From: a virus
Taxonomy: Duplodnaviria > Heunggongvirae > Uroviricota > Caudoviricetes
IMG/VR virus record: IMGVR_UViG_2744054872_000003
Location: 1-40,380 of that record
Length of the DNA stretch: 40,380 nt
Reading direction: 5' to 3' (one strand)
The translations under genes were made by a program, and so were the position numbers. Below, piece after piece: positions 1,400 to 40,380 of this stretch. Under the pieces are notes generated by a model, which ran no database searches, was not told the DNA's origin, and was given only the letters and a program-made list of their open reading frames with translations. Each line of letters opens with the position of its first letter. Position 1 is the stretch's first letter.

Positions 1400-1882
1400 C
1401 TATCTGGTCAGGGTGTCGTACTGTTTTTCGCAGACTCTTCCGGCTTCGGCTGCCCGGTCAGCATACTCTGCCAGTTGTCTGTTTCTCTCGAGAGATTTGC
1501 TGAGCACGTCGGCAAGCAAAACTCCGGTGTCTGCGGCTGACGTCCCAGCGCCGACAATGGCGTTATACTGCCTGAGCTGATCACGGATGGCAACGAGCTG
1601 TTGCTGCAACCGGCCAGCGCGAGCGGCAGCATCAAGAGCATCATTGCGCGCCTGGTCGATCCTCTGCTGAGCTTCACGTTCATTGGTCGTTTTCTCCTGT
1701 TCGTAGTGCTGACGAACTCTCTCATCTTCAGCTTTGCGGTCTTCCTTCGCCTGCGCATACCCGGCGTTGTACTGACGACTTCCGTGTACATTCCAGGCAA
1801 CAACTCCTGATATGACCAGAACAGCAAGCATCACCACGATAAGCAACTGTTTCCAGTATGCTTTTACGAATGCCCAGATCAT
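1400..1882 (-). CDS. i-spanin (Rz-like)
   Basis: N-terminal transmembrane helix followed by a charged coiled-coil periplasmic domain; overlaps the endolysin stop by ATGA; last gene of the lysis cassette. Confidence 0.6.
1408..1644 (-). CDS. o-spanin (Rz1-like lipoprotein) embedded in the +1 frame of the i-spanin gene
   Basis: Internal start [13 protein letters not shown] gives a lipobox signal; short Pro-rich mature region; fully nested in the i-spanin gene. Confidence 0.5.
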   Translation of the reverse strand: MMLLMLPLALAGCSNSSLPSVISSGSITPLSALGRQPQTPEFCLPTCSANLSRETDNWQSMLTGQPKPEESAKNSTTP

Positions 1883-2508
1883 ACCGCCAGCACCTTACTG
1901 GCAGTGACGTACCGCGCTCGCCTGTCGTCGATGCCGTTCCTGCCACCATTGATAATCAGAGTTACACGTGCAATATCGCCGGTATACTTCATGCAGCCTT
2001 TGCTGGAGAAAAACCACGCCGCGCTACGAGCCGCATATTCGTCCTGCGCCAGCAGTTCAGGATTCTCCAGCAGGTCCACTTTCAGGCCGTTTCCGCAGTC
2101 ACGATAGTTATTCAAACCGGTAATCTGAATAAGCCCGCGCCCACGGTAATTCCAGCCATCTCCGGGGGCATTGTTCCCCATGCGTTTGCTGTATACAAGA
2201 TTTGCGATCGCTCGCTGGCGCTCGAGTGGTAATGGCGGTTCACCAGCACGGCGACCCAGTGCATTAGCCTGTCCCTGAGTGAGGCGCCCAGCCCGAACGA
2301 AGTTAGCCAGTCCGGTGACGCTGTAGTTGAAATTCTCCTGCAACCGGGTGAAACCACCAGACTCATGCCCGACCTGAGCAATAAACATTGCCTGATCTTC
2401 GGGTTTGCTGATACCAAACTCTTTCATCGCAGAAGTTATATGCGAGAACCAGCGTGCGGCCAGCGCCTCGCTAATACCAGCAGCTCGCTGGAATTGTTTA
2501 ATCTCCAT
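1879..2508 (-). CDS. Endolysin, glycoside hydrolase family 19 (chitinase-like lysozyme)
   Basis: Motifs [17 protein letters not shown] and [13 protein letters not shown] typical of GH19 phage endolysins; start taken at internal ATG (MEIKQF) preceded by GAGGT RBS, because the upstream part of the ORF-track frame overlaps the holin. Confidence 0.75.
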
Positions 2509-2806
2509 GTTTAGACCTCGATATTTTGAAAATCTGAACAACGTTACCGCGTGTTTTAATAACCGCTGCAAGCATGACAGCGTTGATAATGACCTCAGAT
2601 AAATCCACAGCCATTGGTGTGCGTAACCAGATTGCATAGACGACACGAACAGGAATACTAGCCGCAGCAACAATCAGGAAATAAGCAAGCCACCCTCCCC
2701 ATCTTCGATGTTGAGCTCCGTTACGCCGGAATGTGACAACGCGAATTGCTATGCCAGCACAAATAACTGCATTGGTGATAAGCAAAAAAAACTCATGCGT
2801 TACCAT
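2498..2806 (-). CDS. Holin-like membrane protein
   Basis: About 100 aa with two or three hydrophobic helices, immediately upstream of the endolysin. Confidence 0.45.
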
Positions 2807-3209
2807 CGTCTTTTCTCCCCGGAATTAACTCGCGTGGATTATCAGAACGGTGGTAGAGCCAGATGCCAATTCGCACTGCGACAATTGCTGATACGAATGC
2901 GCCAGCAGAGAAAACAATCCCTTTCTCGAAAGAGTCCTTAGTTATAGTAGGGATCAGACTGGCGATACCGATAAGAATTGATGCTGTCGGTTTGTAGAAG
3001 AGAAGGCCGCAAAGGAAACTGAGCATCGACAGGAGAACCCTGCGATTAATGGGATACTCAATGGCAGAGGTAACAAAAATTACCGCACCAGACAAAGCTC
3101 CCAAAGCCACCTCAGGAGGAGCACCTGCTATCACTGCAACAAGAGAACTCATACTAAGCCACTGATTTAAAGATTCACTGGTTAGCTGGACTGACATAAA
3201 AACCACCAT
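2793..3209 (-). CDS. Holin-like membrane protein (first gene of the lysis cassette)
   Basis: Multiple transmembrane segments; GGTGG RBS; promoter-like TTGAAA-N18-TATGAT upstream on the minus strand. Confidence 0.45.
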   Translation of the reverse strand: MVVFMSVQLTSESLNQWLSMSSLVAVIAGAPPEVALGALSGAVIFVTSAIEYPINRRVLLSMLSFLCGLLFYKPTASILIGIASLIPTITKDSFEKGIVFSAGAFVSAIVAVRIGIWLYHRSDNPRELIPGRKDDGNA

Positions 3210-3289
3210 TTACTGTGCATGAATACAACTTTAGTTAGTGCATCCATCATACACAACAAACCATATATGTTTCAAAACCACCACCAAAA

Positions 3290-3304
3290 TTACCCTAAAG
3301 GTAA
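3290..3304. promoter_or_regulatory. Operator-like inverted repeat TTACC-CTAAA-GGTAA upstream of the lysis promoter
   Basis: Perfect match to the recurring TTACC-N5-GGTAA motif; lies just upstream of a -35/-10 pair reading toward the holin gene. Confidence 0.5.
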
Positions 3305-3661
3305 TAAATTAATGTTATGTATTTTAAGGATGTAAAATACTTAATTTATTCGACAGGTACACATCTCTATTATTTTTGATGTAGCGGGTACCCACACTGA
3401 GCATCATATAGTTTTTTTAATTCTGACATGAATATCTTCATGTTTGATTTAGTATGTATCTCCTTATAAGAATTCATGATACAAGACGTTTGCTAACCAG
3501 ACATTTGAAAAATTCATATTGCTTTGAAATATATATTCAAAAAAAGACACCAAAATATATAAATAAATTACACCAGCATACCATAACAATATTTATCTTC
3601 ACATATATTGTATTTCCTACAGTGTTTATGTCCTGGCATTTAATACATAAAATAATTTTAT

Positions 3662-3685
3662 ACGCCCTTCCATGGGCGTTTTTTA
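3662..3685. terminator. Hairpin terminator at the 3' end of the tailspike gene
   Basis: ACGCCC-TTCCAT-GGGCGT stem with a T6 run on the plus strand and an AU-rich tract on the minus strand. Confidence 0.4.
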
Positions 3686-5941
3686 GTTCAATGCAGTCCA
3701 ATCATTACTAGTGAGACCATGAGACTTCCACCATTTACTTGTCCCTGGAAGCCATACCTCTTGACCAATAAATCGAGGTGTCACGTTACCAACAGGAGTG
3801 CTCATTCCGGCACTTGTAACAACATATCCATATTTTGCTGGGCCTGTTCCATTATTAAGGATTGTATCCTTTGTTATGCCTGTTGCCCCATTGTACCATT
3901 CCAAATCACTACCGCTAGCACCGCTAATAAATTCAGGCATAAAGTGTGAAAATGAATTATTGGCATCCACTCTTGCACCATGGTAAGCCTTATAACCGCT
4001 GGCTTGAGTATTGCTCCACCTCCCTCCTTTTACACTACCAGCAGATGAAGAGAAAAATCTTGCCGCATATCTTGCAAAACCGGCTATATTTATATCATTC
4101 AATTCATAATCAGAAAGAGACGCAATTGACATACCATCATTATTAGGAATACCTGATGCTATTTGTGGGTTTGATGCATATCCTGTTAATGTTGCTCCGT
4201 TAATATATATCCCCGTGCTTGGCCCAGTCTCTGATGTGTATATTCCAACTCCAGAACAGTTAAAAACCTGAAGATCTGTTATTCTAACATTTCTGGCACA
4301 ATTAAAGCTCAAGCCACGCTCAGCTGGTGAATAGGTATCGCGCATAGGATATCCGACATCACGCAAGCGAACTCCGTTAATGCTAATGTTGCTAGGATTC
4401 ATACCTTGTGTTACTGACTCAAAACCTTCAAATGTAATGCCATTACCAACATTGACTCCCACTACATTACTGACATGAATATCTGAGACATACCTTTTAA
4501 ATCCGATAACTCCATGGGCACAATTACGACCAACAACGTTGGTGATAATGCAATTACGTGTACCTCCTGGCACCGCTGCAGAACAATAAATTCCCAAATC
4601 CCGACAATTATCTACGAGAAGGCCGTCAATGACGGAATCTATAGCGCTTGCATACATCAGGCATGAATCAGGAGCATTAACAAGTTCAACATTCTTTAGT
4701 GTGCAACGTGCTCCACCAAAGGTAAGGATATCAGCTACAGCATAAAGCTTGTTGTTTTCTTGATTACCATCAATGCGTAAATCACGTATATGAACATCAT
4801 TAGCCCCCATGTTGTGAACAAGGTAGTAGGCCTGTGTTTTATCAACACAAATATCATCCGCAAATTTAAGCCATCCCCCAGCACCGATAAGTATTGTTTT
4901 CTCCTTGATCTGTAATCCAGTAAATATCCATGGATCTCCATCTTTATTCTTTGGAGTAATCTTTATTGCACAATAACCAGGAACAGAACCAGAATAATCA
5001 AGTGCTGCCTGTAGCGTCTGCTGATCTGTCATGCTACCAAACATAAAAGAACGCACATCAATACAGTCATCAACCTGTAATTCCAATTGTAGGCCATCAA
5101 AACGGTCAACAATAACAATACCATCTGCAGTAATACCCGTATTTGGAGTTACTGAGTACTTATTATAACTACCGGCAGAGTTTTTAACCGCCACCAGGCG
5201 ACCTTCAACGGTAGTGTTTGTTGTCAGCTCAGCCTGAGTGTCGAGCTCCATCGCAATGCCACCAATAAGTGAAGCTCCGGTAGGCTTTGCGAGTTCAATC
5301 AGCACATCTGAAGCAGAACCTGAAGGAGGTAAAACAACAATAGGGTTACCGCCGTTGTCGAAAGCTGGAATTTTATTAGCACGGGTAGCGGCATCAGGAA
5401 GTTGCGGTATCTGCTCCTGAACGCGCAACGTATTTCCTAGATTAGTACTGAGCAGTGTATCAACATAATTTTTAGTAGCAGCATCTTGAGGCTTTGAAGG
5501 ATCGCGTAAATTACGGATGTAATTGTTTAGCGCATCATAATAGTTAGCCACGAATGATGGTTTACGCAGCGCCAGGCTAAACCAACTTCTAACCTGCTGA
5601 ATCAACATCGTTAACTTATCAAACGCATCCTCATGCACCTCAGCAAAAAACTTACCCTGATTGCGCAGATCAGTTTCCTGTGTAACCGGTAGCTCTCGTG
5701 ATATAGAAATCTGATAATCGTTAGCCAACGCCTTCGACAGAATTACATTGCCTCCGTTATACCCTCCCGCACCAGTGACTGTGTAATCAGTATCAAGAAC
5801 CAGCACAGTGATATTCTCGTCAAGGTCAATCACCTGCACAACCAGATCAGATTTCTGGAATATCCTGAAGGTATAAGGGAATGTCGTTGTAACACCGTTA
5901 CCGGTGTATTCGTTGTGGTCAACTTCGGTTGAGACCGTCAT
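3683..5941 (-). CDS. Tailspike protein with T7 gp17-like N-terminal attachment domain and beta-helix-type central domain
   Basis: N-terminus YTGNGVTTTFPYTFRIFQKSDLVVQV resembles the conserved podovirus tail-fibre/tailspike N-terminal domain; central region has Asn/Gly/Val-rich repeats typical of a parallel beta-helix depolymerase. Confidence 0.75.
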   Translation of the reverse strand: MTVSTEVDHNEYTGNGVTTTFPYTFRIFQKSDLVVQVIDLDENITVLVLDTDYTVTGAGGYNGGNVILSKALANDYQISISRELPVTQETDLRNQGKFFAEVHEDAFDKLTMLIQQVRSWFSLALRKPSFVANYYDALNNYIRNLRDPSKPQDAATKNYVDTLLSTNLGNTLRVQEQIPQLPDAATRANKIPAFDNGGNPIVVLPPSGSASDVLIELAKPTGASLIGGIAMELDTQAELTTNTTVEGRLVAVKNSAGSYNKYSVTPNTGITADGIVIVDRFDGLQLELQVDDCIDVRSFMFGSMTDQQTLQAALDYSGSVPGYCAIKITPKNKDGDPWIFTGLQIKEKTILIGAGGWLKFADDICVDKTQAYYLVHNMGANDVHIRDLRIDGNQENNKLYAVADILTFGGARCTLKNVELVNAPDSCLMYASAIDSVIDGLLVDNCRDLGIYCSAAVPGGTRNCIITNVVGRNCAHGVIGFKRYVSDIHVSNVVGVNVGNGITFEGFESVTQGMNPSNISINGVRLRDVGYPMRDTYSPAERGLSFNCARNVRITDLQVFNCSGVGIYTSETGPSTGIYINGATLTGYASNPQIASGIPNNDGMSIASLSDYELNDINIAGFARYAARFFSSSAGSVKGGRWSNTQASGYKAYHGARVDANNSFSHFMPEFISGASGSDLEWYNGATGITKDTILNNGTGPAKYGYVVTSAGMSTPVGNVTPRFIGQEVWLPGTSKWWKSHGLTSNDWTALN

Positions 5942-6045
5942 GTTAAATCTCCAGATAGTCGCAGCACCCGTTGCGCCGCATATCTGGTTATTCTATTACC
6001 TGAAAAACCACATATGGATAGAAAGACTGTGAATATGAATAGATA

Positions 6046-6060
6046 TTACCTTTCGGGTAA
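6046..6060. promoter_or_regulatory. Operator-like inverted repeat TTACC-TTTCG-GGTAA
   Basis: Perfect motif copy upstream of the 6137 gene. Confidence 0.5.
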
Positions 6061-6099: not shown

Positions 6100-6115
6100 C
6101 TGTATAAATATACAG
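6100..6115. promoter_or_regulatory. LexA (SOS) box CTGTATAAATATACAG
   Basis: Matches CTGT-N8-ACAG with an AT-rich centre, one mismatch from the E. coli consensus CTGTATATATATACAG; 21 bp upstream of the 6137 start. Confidence 0.65.
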
Positions 6116-6136: not shown

Positions 6137-6394
6137 ATGCAGCAGTATCACTATCCACTGGAAGACGGATTTACCGAAAGGATTCACACGCCGGGAGGCG
6201 TCAGGTCACTGGTGGAGGGATCGCATTTGATGAAATTACTCCGGGATCTCGATAAGGATGGATTTAATGTCGATGGCCCACTTGCCGAACTGACTGCACT
6301 GATTAACTACGTCACCAGCTCACAGATGTCTATGCGGGATCTGCAAACACATCTCGACTATTGTGCCGAACAATTACGAAAACAAACCAGATAA
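6137..6394 (+). CDS. Small protein homologous to the C-terminal domain of the adjacent antirepressor
   Basis: Aligns over about 85 aa with residues about 145-228 of the 6708..7394 product (shared pattern PL-G-IH-P-GV-L-E-S-LM-LL-DG-V-G-AELT-Y-RD-QTH-Y); GGAGAAG RBS. Confidence 0.55.
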   Translation: MQQYHYPLEDGFTERIHTPGGVRSLVEGSHLMKLLRDLDKDGFNVDGPLAELTALINYVTSSQMSMRDLQTHLDYCAEQLRKQTR

Positions 6395-6425
6395 GGTTTG
6401 CAATTGCCAAGTGGAGTGCTTATAT

Positions 6426-6440
6426 TTACCTTTGCGGTAA
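6426..6440. promoter_or_regulatory. Operator-like inverted repeat TTACC-TTTGC-GGTAA upstream of the antirepressor leader
   Basis: Perfect motif copy. Confidence 0.5.
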
Positions 6441-6707
6441 ATTTACATCGCACTCCTCTTGTGCCATAGTAATCGGGCACTGGCAAAATCCAGTGCCGGG
6501 ATTGGCGTCCCGAGTTACTACAGAGGCACATATGCCGCATAAGCGGTTTTTTTTATGTGTAAAGCGCACCTATTCTATGGTGGGCTGTGTGGGGGCACCG
6601 AAAGGTGCGCCGGGTCCTTTGTAGCCGGTTACGCCAACCCTGCACAGTTCACCACCAACCGATTGGCGTCGGTAGTGGTGATTAACCTAACTACAAAGGT
6701 GATCACT

Positions 6708-7394
6708 ATGACTGCTAACGTAACCCCATCTGTTTTTCATTTTGAATCAGAAGCAACCATTCGAGCCATTGTTATTGATGGAAATCCTTGGTTTGTTGCC
6801 AAAGACGTTATTAAAGCTCTTCAACTGACAAACCCCACTATGTCAATAAAATCTCTTGATGATGATGAAAGGGCTAAATTTAACTTAGGCCGTCAAGGCG
6901 AAACCAATATTATCAACGAGTCAGGCCTCTACACACTGATCCTCCGCTGCCGCGATGCAGTAACACCAGGCACTATCCCCTACCGCTTTCGCAAATGGGT
7001 TACAGGTGAGGTACTTCCTCAGATCCGCCGCACCGGAAGTTACATTAAAAACTCGCTCCCGCAGGAAGAACGCATAAAGATGGTTGCCGACCAGGTAGCC
7101 AACGCCACGGCGTCAGCAGTGATGCAGGCAATGAAGATAGAGAACAAAACCTACAGTGCCCCACTGAAGCCCGGCTACCGTAGCCTGATTCATTCGCCGT
7201 CTGGTGTTCTCGGCCTGACGGAGAACTCACTGCTGATGAATCTGCTGAACAAGTTACAGGAAGACGGGCACGATGTATCGGGCGCGGCAGCGGAGCTGAC
7301 CACCATGTTCTGCTACATCGTCGGTGTGAGCAAATGCCTGCGTGATATCCAGACGCACGCGGAGTACATCAACGACAAAGCAGGGTTCTTCTGA
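6708..7394 (+). CDS. Antirepressor, Bro-N domain protein
   Basis: N-terminus FHFESEATIRAIVIDGNPWFVAKDV...NESGLYTLILR fits the Bro-N pattern; AAGGTGA RBS before ATG at 6708; the ORF-track extension to 6555 looks non-coding. Confidence 0.7.
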   Translation: MTANVTPSVFHFESEATIRAIVIDGNPWFVAKDVIKALQLTNPTMSIKSLDDDERAKFNLGRQGETNIINESGLYTLILRCRDAVTPGTIPYRFRKWVTGEVLPQIRRTGSYIKNSLPQEERIKMVADQVANATASAVMQAMKIENKTYSAPLKPGYRSLIHSPSGVLGLTENSLLMNLLNKLQEDGHDVSGAAAELTTMFCYIVGVSKCLRDIQTHAEYINDKAGFF

Positions 7395-7466
7395 CAAGCG
7401 GTGGCACAGGGATGTGCCTTTAAATAATTCTGTACAGATTGCAGACTGTGGGTGAATAGCGTACTA

Positions 7467-7481
7467 TTACCTTAAAGGTAA
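7467..7481. promoter_or_regulatory. Operator-like inverted repeat TTACC-TTAAA-GGTAA overlapping the RBS of the 7494 gene
   Basis: Perfect motif copy directly abutting the AAGGAGG Shine-Dalgarno. Confidence 0.5.
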
Positions 7482-7493
7482 AGGAGGCGCGAT

Positions 7494-7661
7494 ATGACAG
7501 CGTTGAAAAATCGTACTCAGCACAATGAACAAGCCAAGCAATGCTGGGATGTCATTGGAAAAGTTATGCTTGGCCGCGCAAGCAAAGAGCGCGACAAGGA
7601 TATGGTTTACCAGACAGGAACATCTTTCAGCGACTTCAAGGCGGCATTTCGCTCCAAATAG
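7494..7661 (+). CDS. Small hypothetical protein (55 aa)
   Basis: Strong AAGGAGG RBS; protein-like composition; not in the ORF track because it is under 60 aa. Confidence 0.4.
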   Translation: MTALKNRTQHNEQAKQCWDVIGKVMLGRASKERDKDMVYQTGTSFSDFKAAFRSK

Positions 7662-7681
7662 AAGCACATCAGGAGTTTTCC

Positions 7682-8122
7682 TTGAAGTTTAACATTAGAA
7701 TATCTAATAGTTTTCTACATGGGGAAAGCAACACCCCTTTCGCTGTAGACGGACCTTTCCTTACTGATGATGAAATAAAAATCATACAAAGTTTTTTAGA
7801 GGATGTTGCCAATGGAAGGGCGCTTGTTGGAAAAAACAAGCCCTCGTGGGTTGATGATAACCATGATAAAATTCCCGGCTCAGACAATTATGAGCAAGAG
7901 AATTATTGGCATTATCATTGTGGGCCAACATGGTATCCAAACACATTTAAGAATTATACCATTAACTTAAATTTCAACCCTGGCGGAAGGCATTCTAATG
8001 AATGCATTCATTATGCAAAAAATGATAATGAAATTGTCATTGTTGGATTTTCAAGAGAACACATACCTTTCCTTTCATCAGATGGAAACAACAATCCGCT
8101 TTTTAATGATGAAGAAGAATAG
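7682..8122 (+). CDS. AT-rich accessory gene of unknown function (147 aa), probable TTG start
   Basis: ORF with no in-frame ATG after 7541; AGGAG RBS 6 nt before TTG at 7682; markedly AT-rich; acidic C-terminus; ends at a strong terminator. Confidence 0.45.
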   Translation: MKFNIRISNSFLHGESNTPFAVDGPFLTDDEIKIIQSFLEDVANGRALVGKNKPSWVDDNHDKIPGSDNYEQENYWHYHCGPTWYPNTFKNYTINLNFNPGGRHSNECIHYAKNDNEIVIVGFSREHIPFLSSDGNNNPLFNDEEE

Positions 8123-8400: not shown

Positions 8401-8412
8401 GTGACATGTCAC
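8401..8412. repeat. 12-bp palindrome GTGACATGTCAC, copy 1
   Basis: Perfect palindrome overlapping the stop codon of the 8409..8705 gene and abutting a terminator hairpin; identical copies at 25932 and 28197. Confidence 0.6.
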
Positions 8413-11375: not shown

Positions 11376-11380
11376 TTAAT

Positions 11381-32603: not shown

Positions 32604-33415
32604 AAGAAATCCTCCCATGCTTCAGGGCTGTTCCAGTGCGGAACGTTGTTATCAGGTAATGTTAATTGCTTCTGTCTGCTAATCTGCAGCCTCCTTGCCA
32701 GCTTCTGCTCCCACTGTGCCTGATGGTATGCCTTACCCTCAGCCATCCAGTAAATTCTGAACTCTGCAAGTTCCTGTGCCGTTGGCAGACTGTCCAGGTA
32801 GATCCCCTGCAATGAGCTTTTCCGAAGAAAGTCATCTGATGGTTGCCATTGTTCATGCATGACAAATTTGCCTAATTGCCCTGGCCCACCAGGAGGAACA
32901 AAGTTATTCATCACGGCGTTGTTTGCGCCGGGGTCATGAGACACAGAATCCCCGTTTTTTGTCCTGCTCTCCCTCTCTTGGTTAAATGACTGGTTATATG
33001 ACTGGTTCTGGATCCCGTTTTTGGGATCATTCAACATCCCGTTTTTGGGATCATTCAACATCCCGTTTTTGGGTATATTCCCGTTTTCGGTAAAATTACC
33101 GTTTTCGGGTTCATTACCCCCTTCCCGGTTGCCTTTAATGTTCCCGTTTTTGGTTATATTAAGAGAGAAAACCCGCACTCTTTTTGTCGCTCCCTTTCTC
33201 TCTCCGGTATCTGAAATAAGCCCCATTTTCATGAGCGATATAAGCCCGGCCTGTACGGTTTTTTTATTCAGGCAAGTGTCTTTAACGAGGCGTTCTATGC
33301 TGGGGTAGCAGAGGTTATATTCATCGGCTCTGTCAGCCATCGAGAGCAGTATGAGCTTTAATGATGAGCTACCTGGATCTGTCTCCCAGGCCCAATCTGT
33401 TGCATGTCTGCTCAT
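32600..33415 (-). CDS. Replication initiator (O-like) with origin iterons inside the gene
   Basis: N-terminal HTH-like domain, internal Asn/Gly/Pro repeat region encoded by the iterons, helical C-terminal domain; immediately upstream of the P-like gene. Confidence 0.6.
   Translation of the reverse strand: MSRHATDWAWETDPGSSSLKLILLSMADRADEYNLCYPSIERLVKDTCLNKKTVQAGLISLMKMGLISDTGERKGATKRVRVFSLNITKNGNIKGNREGGNEPENGNFTENGNIPKNGMLNDPKNGMLNDPKNGIQNQSYNQSFNQERESRTKNGDSVSHDPGANNAVMNNFVPPGGPGQLGKFVMHEQWQPSDDFLRKSSLQGIYLDSLPTAQELAEFRIYWMAEGKAYHQAQWEQKLARRLQISRQKQLTLPDNNVPHWNSPEAWEDFL
33012..33160. repeat. Iteron array (putative replication origin)
   Basis: Two perfect 24-bp tandem copies of TCCCGTTTTTGGGATCATTCAACA at 33012..33059, then at least four degenerate copies with core CCCGTTTT(T)GG. 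Confidence 0.7.
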
Positions 33416-33430: not shown

Positions 33431-33631
33431 TCAGCTTGAATGTTGTGGGGAGGAATTAATCATGATCTGCTTAATCTCTGCCCTGATGCGACGGTTTGAT
33501 TCCATGGTGCACTCAACACAGTGTCCGTTGTAAACCCAGCGTTCACTGTCATGTCCGTGCTTACATGGTTTTCCGGTGTAGTAGCGTTTAAGTCCGCGCT
33601 TTGCGGCATCAATACGTGTAATGATTTCCAT
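33431..33631 (-). CDS. Small Cys/His-rich protein (possible zinc finger) in the cII-equivalent position
   Basis: CKHGH...CVEC motif; start uncertain, chosen at MEIITR with AGGG RBS; alternative upstream starts at 33667 (ATG) and 33694 (TTG). Confidence 0.4.
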   Translation of the reverse strand: MEIITRIDAAKRGLKRYYTGKPCKHGHDSERWVYNGHCVECTMESNRRIRAEIKQIMINSSPQHSS

Positions 33632-33711
33632 GGTAAGCCCTGTTATTAGTATTGGGATTACGGTCATTTTGTGCTGACACAAAAAAAAGATCAACCAGAT
33701 TTGGTTATTTA

Positions 33712-33726
33712 TTACCTTTGAGGTAC
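33712..33726. promoter_or_regulatory. Operator-like site TTACC-TTTGA-GGTAC (one mismatch)
   Basis: Lies between the tR1-like hairpin and the 33431 gene. Confidence 0.4.
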
Positions 33727-33781: not shown

Positions 33782-34012
33782 TCATGAGTAGAAGAAGTAT
33801 GCCAGTTCTGCTTTTGAGCGCAGCCATTGTCTTGTTTTACAGGCTTTAAAAAGCCCATTCATCAATACTTTACCTGGCATTTTTCGCTTGCCTGTTAAGT
33901 GAGTCTGGATATAGTGACTCGTCGTTCCGGCTTCCTGTGCGAAGGCTTCACGCTCATCCGGAGTAAGTGCAAGCCAGTGCTTTTTGAAATCGAAATGTCC
34001 GTTATCGCTCAT
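33782..34012 (-). CDS. Cro-like small DNA-binding regulator
   Basis: 76 aa, transcribed divergently from the repressor gene across the tripartite operator region; HTH-like segment around AQEAGTTSHYIQTHLTGKRKMPG. Confidence 0.5.
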   Translation of the reverse strand: MSDNGHFDFKKHWLALTPDEREAFAQEAGTTSHYIQTHLTGKRKMPGKVLMNGLFKACKTRQWLRSKAELAYFFYS

Positions 34013-34048: not shown

Positions 34049-34111
34049 TCACCCATAAGGTAACAAAAATCAAGGATAGTTACCTATGAGGTGCATTTAC
34101 CTGTTGGGTAA
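34049..34111. promoter_or_regulatory. Tripartite operator region with divergent promoters (OR-like)
   Basis: Three motif copies: TCACC-CATAA-GGTAA (34049..34063), TTACC-TATGA-GGTGC (34080..34094), TTACC-TGTTG-GGTAA (34097..34111); the minus-strand TTGTTA-N17-TATTAT promoter for the cro-like gene overlaps the first. Confidence 0.65.
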
Positions 34112-34166: not shown

Positions 34167-34751
34167 ATGAAAAGTATCCAGGACGTCCGCAGGCAAAATC
34201 TCAACGACTTGATCGACCGTGAATTCAATGGTGTTCAGACGCGGATGGCAGAAAAACTTGGAACTCAGGCAAATCTGGTAAACCGCTGGGCTCTTGGCAA
34301 GAAGGTTATCGGCGACCAGGTTGCGCGAAAAATTGAAGCTGCCGCCAATAAACCCCGTAACTGGCTTGATATCGATCGCTCGCTTTCTCAGGAAGGTTTT
34401 CAGCCTGTCGGCCCAAGCGACATTGGTCAGCTGGCGGCTCACAACCTGGAACGCTGGATGAGCGAAAGCCGCGACCTTTCAACACAGGGAAAACTTCACC
34501 GCGCATCCGGCGTCGCCCAGGTGACAATCAGCCGCCTGTTAAACAATGAGGTCAGCGTTTCCATTTCCACCCTGGAGAATGTTGCATCTGCATTCGGGCG
34601 TCACGGATATGAACTACTGATTCATCCGCATGACCCTGCAACTATCAACTATGACCGCTCGCGCTACGCATTGTTACCTGAAACAGAGAAGGCAAAGATC
34701 GAAAGTTACATTGAATTTGTCATCAACCAGAACGAAAAAAGCAAACAATAA
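34167..34751 (+). CDS. Prophage repressor (cI-like) with HTH domains and no S24 peptidase domain
   Basis: N-terminal XRE-type HTH (MAEKLGTQANLVNRWALGKKVIGDQVARKIE) and a second HTH-like segment; no Ala-Gly/Ser/Lys autocleavage module; sits upstream of the early-left promoter in cI-like orientation. Confidence 0.65.
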   Translation: MKSIQDVRRQNLNDLIDREFNGVQTRMAEKLGTQANLVNRWALGKKVIGDQVARKIEAAANKPRNWLDIDRSLSQEGFQPVGPSDIGQLAAHNLERWMSESRDLSTQGKLHRASGVAQVTISRLLNNEVSVSISTLENVASAFGRHGYELLIHPHDPATINYDRSRYALLPETEKAKIESYIEFVINQNEKSKQ

Positions 34752-34772
34752 AACTATAGTTTTCAGCAAGTA

Positions 34773-34798
34773 AGCCGCCTCATGGCGGCTTTTTTATT
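34773..34798 (+). terminator. Rho-independent terminator after the repressor gene
   Basis: AGCCGCC-TCAT-GGCGGCT hairpin followed by TTTTTATT. Confidence 0.75.
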
Positions 34799-34808: not shown

Positions 34809-34885
34809 TTACCTTACGGGTAATTTTTTTAACTCATATCTATTGACACCAAACCAAATACGCATAATCATTACCTCAACGGTAA
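34809..34885 (+). promoter_or_regulatory. Early-left promoter with two flanking operators (pL/OL-like)
   Basis: TTACC-TTACG-GGTAA (34809..34823), -35 TTGACA (34843..34848), -10-like CATAAT/TAATCA, then TTACC-TCAAC-GGTAA (34871..34885). Confidence 0.6.
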
Positions 34886-34904: not shown

Positions 34905-35057
34905 ATGCAGTGGAAAATCATCAACGGTTGGTACTGCGTTACTGCATGCGGATTCATGAGCTGGAAGTTCCGCACCTTACAGGAAGGCATTAAGTGGGCT
35001 TTCGTCAGCAAAGAAGCTCGCGATGTGGCCAACGATAACGAGATATGGGAGGGCTGA
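34905..35057 (+). CDS. Small Trp-rich hypothetical protein (50 aa), first gene of the early-left operon
   Basis: GAGGT RBS 8 nt upstream; translationally coupled to the next gene. Confidence 0.35.
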   Translation: MQWKIINGWYCVTACGFMSWKFRTLQEGIKWAFVSKEARDVANDNEIWEG

Positions 35058-35059
35058 TA

Positions 35060-35359
35060 ATGAACGTTAATCAGCAGAAAAATCTTCAAAAAATCATGCT
35101 GGCATTCGACAAGGACTACCGCCTGTCAGAACAGCTATATGACCGACAAGTCGAACTGATTGAGAGTATCCGGCTTCATCAACTGGCCTCAACTTTTGAC
35201 GTTGTAACAGGCAAAGGCGTTCGTCAGGAAGTACTGGAGGCTGCTAAAGACAGCCCTGAGTTCGAAGAACTGATGGATGCCTATCGGCGAGAGGCAATGG
35301 CAATTATCGCCCGCTGGGATCTGGCGGATCAGCTTGATGGACAGAGGGACGCGGCATGA
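35060..35359 (+). CDS. Hypothetical early protein upstream of the recombination genes
   Basis: 99 aa; ATGA overlap with the exonuclease gene; a nuclease-inhibitor role is only a positional guess. Confidence 0.45.
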   Translation: MNVNQQKNLQKIMLAFDKDYRLSEQLYDRQVELIESIRLHQLASTFDVVTGKGVRQEVLEAAKDSPEFEELMDAYRREAMAIIARWDLADQLDGQRDAA

Positions 35360-36177
35360 AACCGGGAATTTATTTCGACATCAGCAACGAAGACTACCAC
35401 GCCGGTGACGGCGTGAGTAAGTCGCAACTGGACATGGTTGCCAAGAATCCGGCGCTTCTTAAATGGGTCCAGGCAGCACCAGAAGACGAAGAGAAAAAGT
35501 CTGCACTGGATATTGGAACCGCATTGCACTGTCTGCTTCTGGAGCCTGGAGAATTCGACAAACGCTTCATTGTTTCACCGAAGTTCGATCGTCGGACGAA
35601 ACAAGGTAAAGCTGACGAAGAAGCATTTCTTCGTGATGTAGCGGATATGGGGATTACGGTACTTGATGCCGAGCAGTGGCGGAAACTGGAGCTGATGCGT
35701 GATAGCGCAATGGCTCACCCGGCGGCACGCTGGATGCTGGAAGCACCTGGTTACTGCGAAGCATCAATGTACTGGAATGATGAAGAGACTGGTGAGTTGT
35801 GCCGCATTCGTCCAGACAAATGGCTGAACGAGCACAACGTGATCGTCGACGTGAAAAAGGTTGCAGATATGGACCGTTTTGCACGCCACATCGAGGAATT
35901 CCGCTACCACGTGCAGGACGCAATGTACCGCGAAGGCGCAATGAGGGTTACTGGTCAGCCGCATGGTTTTTTCTTTCTTGCCGTGAGCGAAAGCATTGAT
36001 TGTGGTCGGTATCCGGTACGCGTGTTCGAGCTGGATGCGCCGGATGTCGATGCCGGGCACGCTCTGTTCCGCCGGGATCTGAATACCTATCACGAATGCC
36101 GCATAAATGATGAATGGGGCGGTGTGGAAATCATTAAACGCCCTGAGTGGGCACGCAAACAGGATATGTACATATGA
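35356..36177 (+). CDS. PD-(D/E)XK-family exonuclease (RecE/YqaJ-like partner of the annealase)
   Basis: RIRPD...VIVDVKKV matches the D-x(n)-(D/E)-x-K core; translationally coupled to the RecT-like gene. Confidence 0.6.
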   Translation: MKPGIYFDISNEDYHAGDGVSKSQLDMVAKNPALLKWVQAAPEDEEKKSALDIGTALHCLLLEPGEFDKRFIVSPKFDRRTKQGKADEEAFLRDVADMGITVLDAEQWRKLELMRDSAMAHPAARWMLEAPGYCEASMYWNDEETGELCRIRPDKWLNEHNVIVDVKKVADMDRFARHIEEFRYHVQDAMYREGAMRVTGQPHGFFFLAVSESIDCGRYPVRVFELDAPDVDAGHALFRRDLNTYHECRINDEWGGVEIIKRPEWARKQDMYI

Positions 36178-37115
36178 GCAACGACATCGCAAACATCAAC
36201 GCACCAGTAGACACAGCAATCGCTGGAACTGCTGCAACTATTTTCAGCCCAGACGGCTTGAACCAACTGATGAAATTCGCCGAGGTAATGGCGCAAAGCC
36301 GCGTAACGGTACCGGCGCACCTCGCCGGGAAACCAGCTGATTGCATGGCCGTGGCAATGCAGGCTGCGCAGTGGGGAATGAACCCGTTTGCCGTGGCTCA
36401 GAAAACCCATGTTGTGAACGGCACGCTAGGTTATGAAGCCCAATTAGTAAACGCAGTTATCTCAACGATGTCGCCAACAAAAGATCGCATCAACTACGAG
36501 TGGTTCGGGCCGTGGGAACGCGTGATCGGTAAGTTTGTTGAGAAAACATCCAAAAACGGCAATCCATATATCGCACCAGGCTGGACTCTAAAAGACGAAG
36601 AAGGCTGCGGTGTTCGCGTATGGGCAACCATGAAGGGCGAGGATCAACCTCGAGTGCTTGAGTTAATGCTGTCTCAAGCACAGGTAAGAAACTCCACACT
36701 TTGGGCCAGTGATCCGAAACAACAACTCGCATACCTTGCGACAAAACGCTGGTCTCGCTTGCACTGTCCTGACGTAATCATGGGCGTCTACACACCAGAC
36801 GAATTACAGGAAACGGCACCGCGCGTTGAGCGAGACATTACTCCGCAAACGACCACTGCTGCGGGAATGAACAGTCTGATCAACGCTAAACCAGTGAAAA
36901 AGCCTGATGAGCAAACTCGTAAAGCGGATAGCCGTGATCCAGAAGAAATGCTGATGGCCTTTACCAGCGCAGCGATGAATTACAGCACTGTCTCCGAACT
37001 GGATAAGGCTTACAAATACATTGCACAAAAACTTTCAGATGATGACGAACTGCTGGCAAAAGCCACCGACGTTTACAGCGTTCGTCGGGAAGAATTAAAC
37101 GAAACATCTATGTAA
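36174..37115 (+). CDS. RecT/Bet-family single-strand annealing protein
   Basis: Central block ...LWASDPKQQLAYLATKRWSRL... resembles the conserved RecT/Bet core; start at ATG 36174 overlapping the exonuclease stop. Confidence 0.6.
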   Translation: MSNDIANINAPVDTAIAGTAATIFSPDGLNQLMKFAEVMAQSRVTVPAHLAGKPADCMAVAMQAAQWGMNPFAVAQKTHVVNGTLGYEAQLVNAVISTMSPTKDRINYEWFGPWERVIGKFVEKTSKNGNPYIAPGWTLKDEEGCGVRVWATMKGEDQPRVLELMLSQAQVRNSTLWASDPKQQLAYLATKRWSRLHCPDVIMGVYTPDELQETAPRVERDITPQTTTAAGMNSLINAKPVKKPDEQTRKADSRDPEEMLMAFTSAAMNYSTVSELDKAYKYIAQKLSDDDELLAKATDVYSVRREELNETSM

Positions 37116-37164
37116 CCACCACCGCGGCGCCACACGCGCCGCACTGCAACCAAGAGAGGTATTT

Positions 37165-37413
37165 ATGAAAGGTGCATTAGGTAAGAAGGAACTCCTGGCG
37201 GTGGTGCCACTGTCATGGAGCACTATCGACCGTATGGAGCGCGCAGGGGAATTTCCTAAACGCTGGTATATCACTGACAAACGCTGCGCATGGAACCGTG
37301 ACGAAGTTGAGCGTTGGCTTGATGAACGTCAGGCAGCAAGCCCGGCAGAGTTCCAGGGTAAAAAACCTCCTGTTCAGCAACGTGTATATCGTCCCGTGAG
37401 CAACGCTGCATGA
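37165..37413 (+). CDS. AlpA-family phage regulatory protein / excisionase-like
   Basis: LSWSTIDRMERAGEFPKRWYITDKRCAWNRDEVERWLDER fits the AlpA/Xis winged-helix pattern. Confidence 0.55.
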   Translation: MKGALGKKELLAVVPLSWSTIDRMERAGEFPKRWYITDKRCAWNRDEVERWLDERQAASPAEFQGKKPPVQQRVYRPVSNAA

Positions 37414-37522
37414 GTGCGCTGCTAAGGCACTGGAGCAAATGGTCAGGATGGTACTTATTCCTGGCCTCTGTTTCAGCATGGCTTTATCTGCTGGCATTAA
37501 TTTTCAGAGAGGGTTGGATTAA

Positions 37523-37822
37523 GTGAGAAAGTTAAGCCGACTTGAAAAATATCACATGAATAAGGTTTCAATGCGCAGTCCGTCAAAGATTGTCGCCGTT
37601 ACTCCTGCGGCGATAGAGATCGAAAAACGCGCGATTGAAAGAGAGAAAAAAGGGCAGTTCCGCATTGCCGCTCACCTTTGGCTTCAGTGTATGGATGTTG
37701 CTTCTGGTGATGTTGAACGTGCAAGGATCGCGGTTCGCAGGGACCAATGTATCACAAAAGGTAACGGCCTTCGCCGTGGCGACTATAGCGGCATAGGATG
37801 TTGTGGGGTGGTTTATGACTAA
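37523..37822 (+). CDS. Small basic regulator-like protein (possibly PerC-like)
   Basis: FRIAAHLWLQCMDV resembles the PerC family only weakly; GTG start with GAGGG RBS assumed, alternative ATG at 37556. Confidence 0.35.
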   Translation: MRKLSRLEKYHMNKVSMRSPSKIVAVTPAAIEIEKRAIEREKKGQFRIAAHLWLQCMDVASGDVERARIAVRRDQCITKGNGLRRGDYSGIGCCGVVYD

Positions 37823-38465
37823 GAAATACACACTAATCTATGCAGATCCACCCTGGGTATACCGGGACAAAGCCGCAGATGGTAATCGCGGTGCCGGTTT
37901 TAAATATCCGGTTATGAGTGTGCTGGATATCTGCCGCCTTCCTGTGTGGGATTTGGCCGATGAAAACTGTCTGTTGGCCATGTGGTGGGTGCCAACACAA
38001 CCACTCGAAGCACTAAAAGTTGTTGAAGCCTGGGGATTCCGTCTGATGACGATGAAGGGCTTCACGTGGATAAAATGTGGTAGTCGACAACCAGATAAAC
38101 TTGTTATGGGTATGGGACACATGACTCGCGCCAATAGTGAAGATTGCCTGTTTGCGGTAAAGGGAAAACTACCTACGCGCATTAATGCAGGGATCGTTCA
38201 GTCATTTACCGCACCGCGGCTTGAGCATTCAAGAAAGCCAGATATCGTTCGTGAAAAACTTGTGCAATTATTAGGCGATGTTTCTCGCATTGAACTGTTC
38301 GCCCGCCAGACGTCTCATGGCTTCGATGTTTGGGGTAATCAGTGCGAAGACCCGGCAGTGCAACTACACCCTGGATACGCGTTGGATATTGGCGGATTAA
38401 CAAATGCATTCAGCAATGCTCCGCTGTCACCAACAGACAACCAGGGACGGGAGCGTGCTGCATGA
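37815..38465 (+). CDS. MT-A70-family DNA N6-adenine methyltransferase
   Basis: Catalytic DPPW motif in [12 protein letters not shown] near the N-terminus; about 216 aa. Confidence 0.8.
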
Positions 38466-39121
38466 ACCTATATCAACGCATCAATGGCGCTGACTGGTGC
38501 AATATCTTCGTCGTCGGCGATCTGCATGGGTGCTACACGCTGCTGATGAACGAACTCGACAAAGTTTCATTCGACCCGGCGCGCGATTTACTTATTTCCG
38601 TTGGTGACCTTGTTGACCGCGGCGCTGAAAACGTCGAATGCCTGGATTTGATTACTATGCCGTGGTTCCGAGCTGTTCGTGGCAACCATGAGCAGATGAT
38701 GCTGGATGCACTGGTCAACGGCGGAAGTTTCGGACATTGGATGTCAAACGGCGGTGGATGGTGGCACCAACTTGATTCTGAGCAGGATGTGCAACTCAAA
38801 TACCTTCTGCCAAAGATTACCAACCTCCCGATGATTATCGAACTAGTTACCGGCAATAAGAAGGTCGTCATCTGTCACGCAGACTACCCGCACAACGAAT
38901 ACGCATTCGATAAGCCAGTACCAGAAGAAATGGTGATATGGAATCGTGAGCGGGTTAGCGACGCGCAGGACGGTATTGTCTCGGAGATAACCGGTGCCGA
39001 TTTGTTCATCTTCGGTCATACGCCAGCACATCACCCACTGGTGTATGCAAACCAGATGTACATCGACACCGGCGCAGTGTTCTGCGGAAATCTGACGCTT
39101 ACCAAAGTCCAGGAAGGATAG
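38462..39121 (+). CDS. Ser/Thr protein phosphatase (PPP-family metallophosphatase, lambda-PPase-like)
   Basis: Motifs GDLHG, GDLVDRG and RGNHE; start at ATG 38462 overlapping the methylase stop. Confidence 0.85.
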
Positions 39122-39123
39122 AA

Positions 39124-40380
39124 TTATTTATTACTGTCTTCCATCCACCTCTCAAACTTCGACGGGGAGAACGGAATCAGATCCGTATGCTCCCCGTTAA
39201 TCCAGGAATCAATCATATCGGCCCACTGCTGCAACATGTAGGCGCGCTGTCTGGCGTATTCCGCTTTGTTATATACGGCGCGCACACCTTTCTGCTCATG
39301 TGCCAGAGCCTTTTCAATCCAGTCTGAAGGATAACCAGCCTCATGCAACAACGTACTTGCTGTACGGCGCATATCGTGTACGGTGAAGTCCTGAATATGC
39401 TCACCATCTTCATTTATTATTTTCACCGTTCTGTCGATCAGAGAGTTCAGCGCGGCATTAGATAATGGCTTCCGGAAATTGTAACGACCAGGAACCAGAT
39501 ATTCACTTCCACCAGCGCACATCTGCAACCCAACCAATATATCCTGTGCCTGTTTAGGCAGGTAAATAACGTGCGCCCGGCTTCCCTTCATGCGGTCTGA
39601 AGGAATTGTCCATGTCCATTTTTTAAAATCTATTTCATCCCACGTTGCATTGGTGAATTCGCCTTTACGAACCATAGTGATAAGCACCAGCTTTAAAGCC
39701 ATTTTCATAGTGCCCATAGCACCAATGGCATCCAGCGTGCGGAAGAACAGGCCAATTTCTTCTGGTGTCAGTGTTCGCTCTCGTGGTTTAAATATGGCGA
39801 TAGACGAAGGTTTAATGTCAGCCGCAGGATTAAACAAACCATGACCACGGTCATTGGCGTGACGGTATACGCTGCTGATGATCTCCCTGGCCTGTACTGC
39901 TGTTGCCCGACCACCGCGTTCGACAATCCGGTCACACAAATCACGAACCATCGATGTGGTAATTTCAGCCATCATTTTGTTGCCAAGAACCGGAAGTATG
40001 TCACGGTCGATCACCGCCTGCTTCATTGCGCGGGTACTGTCAGCCAGGATGACGTGTTTCATATAACTGTCGGTATGTACCGCAAACGTCTCGGCACCAC
40101 GAATCTTTTTGATACCGTCACGTTTAGCCGCAGCCGGTGACTGTCCTGCTTTAAGCAGCTTCTTTGCAGCAATCAGTTCTTCCCGCGCTTCTGCCAGGCT
40201 GATACCGTCACGCCCATACTGCCCGATTACCAGTGTTTCGCGGCGACCGTTGATACGGTAGTCATAGCGAAACGAGACCGTACCTGACGTAAGCACAGCT
40301 ACATACAGCCCGTCACGATCGGAGACTTTGTACAGTTTGTCCTGCGGCTTGAGGTTTTTTAATTTTGTATCGGTAAGCAC
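39124..40380 (-). CDS. Tyrosine integrase, P4-like, 5' end at or beyond the window edge
   Basis: N-terminal arm-binding domain LTDTKLKNLKPQDKLYKVSDRDGLYVAVLTSG; catalytic HDMRRT (HxxR) and C-terminal Tyr in VRAVYNKAEY; the first codon in the window is GTG at the very last bases, so the true start may lie outside. Confidence 0.85.
   Translation of the reverse strand: MLTDTKLKNLKPQDKLYKVSDRDGLYVAVLTSGTVSFRYDYRINGRRETLVIGQYGRDGISLAEAREELIAAKKLLKAGQSPAAAKRDGIKKIRGAETFAVHTDSYMKHVILADSTRAMKQAVIDRDILPVLGNKMMAEITTSMVRDLCDRIVERGGRATAVQAREIISSVYRHANDRGHGLFNPAADIKPSSIAIFKPRERTLTPEEIGLFFRTLDAIGAMGTMKMALKLVLITMVRKGEFTNATWDEIDFKKWTWTIPSDRMKGSRAHVIYLPKQAQDILVGLQMCAGGSEYLVPGRYNFRKPLSNAALNSLIDRTVKIINEDGEHIQDFTVHDMRRTASTLLHEAGYPSDWIEKALAHEQKGVRAVYNKAEYARQRAYMLQQWADMIDSWINGEHTDLIPFSPSKFERWMEDSNK

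Follow-up and report, generated by a model that had tools for sequence, protein, structure and literature searches.

The window analyzed here, a 40,380-nt stretch of DNA (positions 1 to 40,380 of IMG/VR virus record IMGVR_UViG_2744054872_000003, Caudoviricetes), carries a prophage of the genus Uetakevirus, and our subject is the control of its late genes, all of which are read on the minus strand. We favor, at a probability of roughly 55%, an arrangement in which the prophage is repressed unit by unit through 14 operators, the promoter of the small terminase subunit gene terS is directly derepressed, and three late promoters depend on an additional factor. Three conserved DNA signals appear to mark the places to look for late activation.

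In this arrangement, a repressor with two helix-turn-helix (HTH) domains would bind the palindrome TTACC-N5-GGTAA through its conserved N-terminal domain, and its 14 sites, guarding the head of every unit including the late ones, would silence the prophage unit by unit rather than by a cascade. DNA damage would remove LexA from a box in front of the gene of a small antirepressor, and a second antirepressor, of the Bro-N type, would lie behind isrK- and c4-type RNAs. Upon derepression, sigma-70 promoters would fire at PL, at PR, and in front of the nin-like genes, both antirepressor genes, and the terminase genes, the predicted -10 hexamer ending on the first base of the operator at all of these except PR. 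The portal-to-core, tailspike, and lysis units would be transcribed by the host polymerase together with an early protein conserved in the genus, which would read a late element in the spacer and -10 position. Neither a phage polymerase nor antitermination of the Q or N type would be needed.

The operator is a 15-bp palindrome, ATTACC-N5-GGTAAT when one more base on either side is counted, that occurs 14 times in the window (at most one mismatch allowed) versus 0.64 copies expected. All copies are intergenic, one or two stand at the head of each transcription unit, and 10 of the 14 lie outside the left (OL) and right (OR) operators of the immunity region. Their positions, with those of the associated genes and terminators, are as follows:

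34167-34751, plus strand: repressor, 194 amino acids, two HTH domains
33782-34012, minus strand: cro-like gene
34049-34063 and 34097-34111: OR operators, with PR (TTGTTA-17-TATTAT)
34809-34823 and 34871-34885: OL operators, with PL (TTGACA-17-AATCAT)
34772-34791, plus strand: terminator after the repressor gene
33760-33741, minus strand: cro terminator
33712-33726, minus strand: operator after the cro terminator
31704-31718 and 31766-31780, minus strand: operators of the nin-like genes, flanking TTGATT-17-CTTAAT
28104-28118 (O1) and 28086-28100 (O2), minus strand: terS operators, O2 overlapping the ribosome-binding site
24977-24991, minus strand: operator of the portal unit
6046-6060, minus strand: operator of the tailspike unit
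3290-3304, minus strand: operator of the lysis unit
6426-6440, plus strand: operator of the Bro-N antirepressor unit
7467-7481, plus strand: operator of a unit of accessory open reading frames (ORFs), with the -10 hexamer TACTAT ending on its first base

With its repressor and cro genes diverging and two to three operators overlapping each of PL and PR, the immunity region belongs among lambdoid ones. The same operator motif was found in the same places in phiV10, PAS61, epsilon15, Tyrion, SPN1S, and Klebsiella phage BUCT711, and its half-sites are identical in every Uetakevirus examined. Seven copies are annotated as "protein_bind: repressor" in the epsilon15 RefSeq record, including those before terminase, portal, and tailspike. 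An earlier, sequence-only reading of the window had singled out the operators upstream of terminase (28086-28100 and 28104-28118) as a lead to late activation. These sites are real and belong to the 14-copy set, and operators are a correct lead to the late units, but not a new one, given the epsilon15 annotation.

In an alignment of the repressors, overall identity fell to 43%, while the first 70 residues, comprising the N-terminal HTH with an invariant NLVNRW, were almost unchanged. This near invariance, which fits the invariant operator, extends across phages of Escherichia, Klebsiella, and Salmonella, with the C-terminal HTH half diverging. Together, identical operators and a nearly invariant HTH suggest cross-immunity across host genera. 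Domain scans assigned only HTH domains to the repressor and detected no S24 peptidase or other self-cleavage domain.

Five units share one promoter design, consisting of a -35 hexamer, 17 nt, and a -10 hexamer that shares its final T with the start of the operator, with terS lacking the -35. The predicted promoters are:

PL: TTGACA / AATCAT
promoter of the nin-like genes: TTGATT / CTTAAT, same geometry as PL
6398-6426, plus strand, antirepressor promoter: TTGCAA / TATATT
at 7467, plus strand, promoter of the accessory ORFs: TTGCAG / TACTAT
28126-28118, minus strand, terS promoter: extended -10 TGgTACTAT, no -35

PL and the promoter of the nin-like genes have a second operator 62 bp upstream, and the O2 operator of the nin-like genes, like that of terS, overlaps the ribosome-binding site. 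A strong intrinsic terminator (28155-28138, minus strand) precedes the terS promoter. This terminator, the extended -10, and both operators are kept in five genomes; the stretch from the upstream regulator gene to the terminator carries an 18-nt indel. We infer that terS and terL form a separate unit under direct repressor control, which the terminator would insulate from the early-right operon.

The three remaining late leaders, those of the portal, tailspike, and lysis units, share a different signal. This late element, ATRTGGTT-N5-KGTAWDA, is 20 nt long and occurs exactly three times in the window, versus 0.05 copies expected, each time on the late strand:

3247-3266, minus strand: late element of the lysis leader (ATATGGTTTGTTGTGTATGA)
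5994-6013, minus strand: late element of the tailspike leader (ATGTGGTTTTTCAGGTAATA)
24913-24932, minus strand: late element of the portal leader (ATGTGGTTAAATTGGTAATA)

As a block it takes the form CATATGTGGTT-N5-GGTAATA in the portal and tailspike leaders and CATATATGGTT-N5-TGTATGA in the lysis leader. In each late leader, the operator lies upstream and the block follows 25-45 bp on, constant while its flanks diverge, also in the distant Klebsiella member. Among 59 fetched loci, the element was found only in six Uetakevirus genomes, at equivalent places. The block ends in a -10-like hexamer (TAATAA in the portal, TAATAG in the tailspike, and TATGAT in the lysis leader), and the -35 position is not conserved; the portal and tailspike leaders have no -35 in any genome compared. 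An additional factor is therefore implied, and the late elements may be factor-dependent promoters, with the early proteins conserved throughout the genus as candidate readers. The proteins kept in all seven genomes compared are the zinc-ribbon protein, the PerC-like and AlpA-like proteins, the cro-like protein, and the repressor, and also the two small PL-proximal ORFs, a small zinc protein, the methylase, and the small antirepressor.

The left part of the block falls within a looser palindrome, AACCA-N4-TGGTT, with seven matches in the window versus 1.1 expected; one of them, at 33693, follows the cro terminator, and another, at 6385, is close to the antirepressor promoter. Sigma-54, sigma-28, sigma-32, MerR-type, and DnaA-box consensus sequences, compared by eye, did not fit the late element. 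The late and immunity leaders gave no match to a known RNA in an Rfam search run at a permissive threshold.

Several of these data could also be accommodated without a dedicated late activator, if weak constitutive promoters and terminator leakage supplied late transcripts, promoter strength and gene dosage after replication alone set their timing, and the late element acted on RNA, through its processing, stability, or translation. Every unit has its own operator, family scans recognized no activator family anywhere in the prophage, and the window's lysis leader is the only one to score as a full sigma-70 promoter (TTGAAA-18-TATGAT, 3275-3246, 10 of 12 positions). Furthermore, RNase III sites are predicted over the lysis leader in the epsilon15 record, and, read in the late direction, the hairpin that follows terL makes a poor terminator. 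We nonetheless consider this explanation doubtful. It is the DNA sequence of the late element that is kept, with constant spacing to the -10-like hexamer of each of the three unrelated leaders, and it shows neither compensatory changes nor a shared stable fold; the portal and tailspike leaders are devoid of a -35 in all genomes, and strong terminators close the early-right and core operons.

Some observations weigh against the arrangement that we favor. The pattern of the late element was derived from the same sequences in which it was counted, which makes the count partly circular; its strand, positions, and absence elsewhere are not affected. The portal and tailspike -10 hexamers lack the usual final T, and the late element might therefore not be a promoter. 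The epsilon15 annotators read part of the late leaders as RNase III sites, and the late-unit operators lie 25-45 bp upstream of the putative promoters, an odd placement for simple repression. No promoter is recognizable for the replication genes downstream of the cro terminator, so that read-through or antitermination may still be needed there. Finally, the literature searched offers nothing on late transcription in the genus, and the papers on ZX5, phiV10 infection dynamics, and the epsilon15 packaging apparatus offer nothing on operators either.

The sequence-only reading had recognized no phage RNA polymerase and no Q- or N-like antiterminator, and this was upheld by scans of the window ORFs against Pfam, PHROGs, and NCBIfam. 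In Pfam and PHROGs, no RNA polymerase family was detected in any scanned ORF of at least 490 amino acids or in any early ORF, and the large virion proteins contain no DxDxD motif. All three databases failed to reveal a Q family protein among the ORFs of the nin region or an N family protein among the scanned ORFs. The two PL-proximal ORFs are not rich in arginine, and no boxA was found near PL or PR. A canonical antiterminator or late activator among the small ORFs, on which the sequence-only reading would have foundered, was not found in either the nin region or the early-left operon.

A highly divergent late RNA polymerase might be concealed in an ejected virion protein of 837, 824, or 600 amino acids, in the fashion of N4-like or crAss-like phages, and the 600- and 824-residue proteins indeed have no Pfam match and no relative of solved structure. 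We regard this as extremely improbable. Apart from the missing polymerase families and DxDxD motif, the 837-residue protein carries a lytic transglycosylase region, its neighbors are T7 gp14-like internal proteins, and the late leaders carry host-type -10 hexamers together with repressor operators.

Three small early proteins were considered as regulators. An 82-residue protein (37165-37413, plus strand) matching PF05930 was rejected as an antiterminator of the AlpA/21Q type, being too small and matching only the 51-residue Phage_AlpA/excisionase domain; Pseudomonas AlpA consists of eight helices with DNA-contact residues up to position 142, its N terminus forming a ring within the RNA exit channel and its C terminus an HTH (PMC9371919). 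The window protein is more likely an excisionase than an antiterminator. The PerC-like protein (37523-37822, plus strand) has only weak PerC/ANR similarity and remains a candidate late factor without support. The small zinc protein in the cII position (33431-33631, minus strand) proved uninformative, its relatives being scattered in lytic phages and often fused to, or annotated as, nucleases.

The induction region lies between the tailspike leader and the accessory ORFs and comprises the following features:

6100-6115, plus strand: near-consensus LexA box (CTGTATAAATATACAG), directly before an 85-residue ORF
6137-6394, plus strand: 85-residue ORF, putative small antirepressor, whose C-terminal half resembles the C terminus of the Bro-N antirepressor
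6477-6553, plus strand: isrK-like RNA (Rfam, 74.2 bits, above the gathering score)
6573-6659, plus strand: c4-type antisense RNA (Rfam RF01695, 79.5 bits versus a gathering score of 45)
about 6708-7394, plus strand: Bro-N antirepressor (Pfam E value, 7.7e-20)

The LexA box is kept in all five Uetakevirus genomes examined for it, and the 85-residue ORF is conserved across the genus. The two probably provide an SOS induction route for a repressor that does not cleave itself. The Bro-N unit runs from an operator-controlled promoter through the isrK-like and c4-type RNAs to the Bro-N gene. With these RNAs in its leader, the ORF called at 6555-7394 therefore probably starts near 6708. Thus, the description of the regulatory core as lambda-like holds for the content of the early modules and fails for induction, which appears to proceed through antirepressors, with RNAs like those of P1 immI and no self-cleaving repressor; judged from its sequence, the core is only partly lambda-like.

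The gene in front of the pre-terS terminator (28205-28543, minus strand, ATG at 28543) encodes a 112-residue protein that looks like a ribbon-helix-helix domain combined with a TraR-like zinc finger. It belongs to PHROG 536, "transcriptional regulator," and to no Pfam or NCBIfam family; a PDB sequence search was null, and Foldseek comparisons with the PDB and viral models returned nothing useful. The family comprises 159 clusters at 50% identity among 1.8 billion proteins. A 59-member alignment showed a basic N-terminal helix, a strand-helix-helix core, and an invariant CxxC, after which come P, G, and another conserved Cys. TraR and YbiI, DksA-type zinc fingers binding RNA polymerase, matched the family profile at E values of 0.019 and 0.026, respectively, with the second cysteine pair arranged differently from the CxxC-N17-CxxC of that class and no match to Pfam zf-dskA_traR. 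With hhalign, TraR reached a probability of 68%; the TraR sequence used agrees with the stretch in the profile match. Homology to MatP was rejected at an hhalign probability of 0.7%. The protein is best described as a putative site-specific DNA-binding domain joined to a zinc finger that possibly contacts polymerase, and by the same comparisons it is not a relative of Q, N, or Ogr.

A 12-bp palindrome, GTGACATGTCAC, is associated with this gene. It has three exact copies in the window, to which a tolerance of two mismatches adds no further site:

28197-28208, site 1: contains the stop codon of the zinc-ribbon gene, 20-40 nt before the pre-terS terminator
25932-25943, site 2: separated by four bases from the hairpin that lies between terL and the gene on the other strand
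8401-8412, site 3: abuts the terminator (8400-8383) that closes the head-tail-core operon

In seven Uetakevirus genomes, the same three positions carry the palindrome without a single change, and in epsilon15 and SPN1S a fourth, degenerate copy overlies the stop codon of Rz. Homologues of the protein occur in Uetakeviruses, Pectobacterium myovirus ZF40, P2-like Yersinia phages, N15, phiKO2, Vibrio siphoviruses, Aeromonas phages, and the lambda-like phage Chlobot, their gene often being the last in an early operon. In most of the other subfamilies tested, the stop codon of the homologue overlaps GTGAC-NN-GTCAC or is no more than 7 nt away from it, often with the TGA in the first half-site; this placement was seen in ZF40, Yersinia phages, N15, Chlobot, and six metagenomic loci. 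The palindrome was recorded at loci L001-L004, L058, L059, L009, L010, L005, L053, L011-L013, and L054-L056. The placement differs in two cases: in one P2-like group, two sites spaced by 33 bp lie 0.5-4.5 kb downstream, beside a conserved noncoding block, and in Vibrio K233 the sites are found 226 nt downstream and, ahead of the terS start codon, at a distance of 19 nt. The alternative palindrome AACCA-N4-TGGTT was rejected as the protein's site, being absent from ZF40, Chlobot, and the Yersinia phage, all of which encode the protein. We infer that GTGAC-NN-GTCAC is the protein's own site; GTGACATGTCAC was found in no paper of the literature searched.

In the P2-like loci from IMG/VR (L014-L050; e.g., L014 6727-6892), the noncoding block of about 120 nt adjoins the 3' end of the portal gene and ends in a GC-rich stretch, followed by two GTGACATG(G/T)CAC sites. 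It may be a cos region or a small RNA gene.

The zinc-ribbon protein had been the second lead of the sequence-only reading, and its gene and position are as described there. The gene closes the early-right operon immediately before terminase, in the classical position of Q. The protein could be the late switch that replaces Q, binding GTGACATGTCAC behind its own gene and at two other operon ends, touching RNA polymerase through its TraR-like finger, and either passing terminators or activating an adjacent promoter. In the seven Uetakevirus genomes, every palindrome copy is followed within 0-40 nt by an intrinsic terminator; in most of the homologue subfamilies tested, gene and palindrome occur together; and site 1 overlaps a promoter-like GTGACA-18-CATGAT with the terminator behind it, an arrangement that recalls lambda pR'-tR' in miniature. 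We think such a switch unlikely, since the homologues coexist with dedicated late regulators: N15 has a Q-like gene besides its homologue, Chlobot has N and Q with the homologue in its left arm near xis and int, and Yersinia phage vB_YenM_31.17 has the homologue and an Ogr gene, with TGT-N12-ACA elements, the mark of Ogr-dependent promoters in P2, in its late promoters. The family is therefore not a generic late activator, which weakens the lead. Within the window, the conserved promoter and operators of terS lie past the terminator, so that read-through is not needed there, and the portal, tailspike, and lysis leaders contain no copy of the palindrome. In phages other than Uetakeviruses, the palindrome is not located beside terminators. 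A tentative suggestion, in which we place rather little confidence, is that protein and palindrome form an undescribed portable module, whose Uetakevirus copies, at the 3' ends of the rightward operons and just before their intrinsic terminators, steer termination or read-through in the place of Q or serve a MatP-like organization or insulation.

The Ogr-type zinc-finger ORF (MMHCPRCKF...) of vB_YenM_31.17 (L010) lies after gpD at about 32430-32660 on the plus strand, where the public record annotates a 92-residue minus-strand ORF.

Around these regulatory signals, the virion and lysis genes are organized as follows:

1400-1882, minus strand: Rz-like spanin
about 1879-2508, minus strand: endolysin
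2498-2806, minus strand: holin
2793-3209, minus strand: membrane protein, the last gene of the lysis cassette (1400-3209)
3683-5941, minus strand: tailspike, 752 amino acids; PHROG tail fibre/tailspike families match residues 1-230
8718-24886, minus strand: head-tail-core operon
8901-15693, minus strand: core proteins, comprising the next three
8901-11375, minus strand: 824-residue protein
11381-13183, minus strand: 600-residue protein
13180-15693, minus strand: 837-residue transglycosylase-bearing protein
15706-16245, minus strand: gp14-family protein, 179 amino acids (T7_gp14 PF24072, 33.7 bits versus a cutoff of 27)
16709-19180, minus strand: nozzle, 823 amino acids (PDB 8ck1 "Tail Nozzle," E value 7e-216)
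19180-19785, minus strand: tubular-A-like protein, 201 amino acids (PHROG tail tubular family)
20994-21986, minus strand: capsid (PF20911, epsilon15 GP7 family, E value 2.1e-149)
21995-22696, minus strand: protease-or-scaffold gene
22986-24665, minus strand: portal (PF12236, T7 gp8 family, E value 7.5e-188)
24680-24886, minus strand: small leader gene of the portal unit
25314-25390, plus strand: tRNA-Arg(UCU), not on the strand of the late genes, lying between the portal unit and terL
25589-25927, plus strand: N4 Gp49/Sf6 gene 66 family gene, within the opposite-strand insert 25314-25967 between terL and the portal unit
25948-25967, plus strand: terminator of this insert
26018-27493, minus strand: TerL
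27490-28074, minus strand: TerS (PF03592, E value 9.7e-30)

The true start of TerS, an ATG at 28074, was set by alignment with epsilon15 and Tyrion. The T7-type gene order of the sequence-only reading stands, with uneven homology: it is supported for the portal, the gp14-family protein, the nozzle, and, by PHROG, the tubular-A-like protein, whose epsilon15 orthologue is recorded as matching T7 tubular protein A by HHpred. The capsid is instead a member of the GP7 family, the supposed scaffold has no Pfam match and is filed by PHROGs as a protease, and the likeness of the tailspike to gp17 is positional only. The tailspike consists of a conserved N-terminal adaptor of about 230 residues followed by a variable receptor-binding part, and the Pfam scan gave no match, including none to the T7 tail-fibre domain.

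The lysis cassette is collinear with phiV10 p27-p30 and with PAS61, at 96-98% identity. Between it and the tailspike, the window (3210-3682) lacks the O-antigen-modifying gene (acetylase or polymerase) that is present there in phiV10, PAS61, Tyrion, epsilon15, and SPN1S and contains only an 85-residue ORF (3454-3711, plus strand). The tRNA-Arg(UCU) gene is also found, unannotated, in phiV10 and PAS61 (loci L001 2853-2929 and L002 15212-15288), overlapping in phiV10 the coding sequence called p04, and is absent from epsilon15 and Tyrion.

The early, accessory, and integration genes not listed above are these:

7494-7661 and/or 7541-8122, plus strand: accessory ORFs of 55 and 193 amino acids in overlapping frames
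28536-31700, minus strand: nin-like accessory genes (ASCH-like, 86-residue ORF, DUF551, Ead/Ea22, DUF1064/resolvase-like)
31818-32618, minus strand: lambda P family protein
32600-33415, minus strand: DnaT/O-like protein, with internal 24-nt iterons at 33012-33119
34905-39121, plus strand: early-left operon (two small ORFs, RecE-like, RecT, MT-A70 methylase, NinI-type phosphatase), in which the AlpA- and PerC-like genes lie
39124-40380, minus strand: tyrosine integrase

The accessory ORFs at 7494-8122 have no family match and no counterpart in six related genomes and are strain-specific cargo. Within the DnaT/O-like gene, a 24-nt repeat (ATCCCGTTTTTGGGATCATTCAAC, with variants) recurs four to seven times in tandem over 33012-33161 and looks like lambda-style origin iterons. 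Following the cro terminator, the segment 33693-33741 contains an operator, a palindrome (AACCAGATTTGGTT, 33693-33706), a GATC, and a run of eight T residues, and is conserved across the genus.

The whole-genome comparison with epsilon15- and phiV10-like phages that the sequence-only reading had proposed settles the identity of the prophage. In a megablast search of a phage collection with both halves of the window, phiV10, PAS61, phiv142-3, and HEMP4 were 96-98% identical over 80-85% of the query, and Salmonella phage epsilon15 about 77% at the nucleotide level. Synteny with phiV10, PAS61, and phiv142-3 is full, and nucleotide similarity and gene order thus place the window in Uetakevirus, as do the Pfam matches to an epsilon15-type capsid and a T7 gp8-type portal. 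The host genes yfgH (109-627) and yfgI (643-1182), which match E. coli genomes, make up the host DNA in bases 1-1182. They lie to the left of the att core ATTGAGTGGGAATGATT (1273-1289), an exact match to the ZX5 core; ZX5, a Uetakevirus, has a 17-bp att core and integrates at the 3' end of guaA (PMC9782041). Hence, the prophage starts at this prophage/host junction and not at 1400, as had been supposed; because the integrase start codon is the last feature of the window, the second att site falls beyond its end. By sequence comparison, the window is settled as an intact E. coli prophage of the phiV10/epsilon15 type, inserted next to guaA (guaA-yfgI site). Of 5,426 complete E. coli genomes, 501 (about 9%, or 1 in 11) cover at least 80% of the 4-kb stretch that runs from the regulator gene to the portal leader, and this is a common, published prophage type.

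The mosaic of a T7-type virion order lacking a polymerase and lambdoid early modules had been described correctly, with the modules where they had been placed. It is the standard, published architecture of Uetakevirus and already known, and with the genus known, the mosaic itself therefore teaches nothing new. The question that the genus leaves is how a temperate podovirus with a T7-type virion module, and without a polymerase, Q, or N, times its late genes, which no paper in the literature searched addresses for any Uetakevirus. Testable parts of our proposal are the 14-site repressor regulon reaching the late units, the three-copy, genus-specific late element, and the conserved regulator-plus-palindrome module in podo-, myo-, and siphoviruses of enterobacteria, Vibrio, and Aeromonas. 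Derivatives of phiV10 serve as reporter phages for the detection of O157, and knowledge of the real late promoters would therefore have practical use.

Compared with known systems, the window is closest to phiV10, PAS61, phiv142-3, ZX5, and HEMP4, with which it shares gene order, operators, terminators, tRNA-Arg, and integration site; from the phiV10 group it differs in the receptor-binding part of the tailspike, the accessory genes at 6555-8122, the 86-residue ORF, and the DUF551 gene. With T7-like phages (Autographiviridae) it has in common the order of portal, scaffold/protease, capsid, tubular A, nozzle, internal proteins, and tail fibre, and homology in the portal, the gp14-family protein, the nozzle, and, by PHROG, the tubular-A-like protein, but not in the capsid, scaffold, or head of the tail fibre. 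Unlike these phages, it is temperate and has neither a phage RNA polymerase nor phage-specific promoters, and its terminase genes lie upstream of the portal gene rather than at the end of the module. Its likeness to phages of the lambda/P22 type comprises the divergent repressor and cro genes, OL and OR, replication of the O/P type with iterons in the O-like gene, nin-like genes, RecE/RecT, and early-left and early-right operons. The differences are the lack of N/nut, Q/qut, and a RecA-cleavable repressor domain, the two-HTH repressor, the operators at all units, and the predicted induction through antirepressors.

The host site matS, GTGAC[AG]N[TC]GTCAC, is 13 bp long (PMC3603311). The palindrome of the window has the same half-sites with a spacer one base shorter (12 versus 13 bp), and the window protein has a putative zinc finger instead of the helical bundle and coiled coil of MatP. 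In mycobacteriophage L5, one repressor, gp71, likewise acts at many dispersed stoperators, some inside 5' leaders, and a repressor with such sites would silence every unit. L5 has about 30 asymmetric, orientation-dependent sites bound by a monomer (PMC9283540), in contrast to the symmetric 15-bp palindromes of the window, which stand at promoters, one or two per unit. The c4-type and isrK-type RNAs in the antirepressor leader resemble those of P1/P7 immI, the c4-type RNA by its Rfam score, and the LexA box before a small antirepressor gene resembles the SOS circuits of the Gifsy/N15 type. Unlike either of these circuits, the window combines both with operators of the main repressor.

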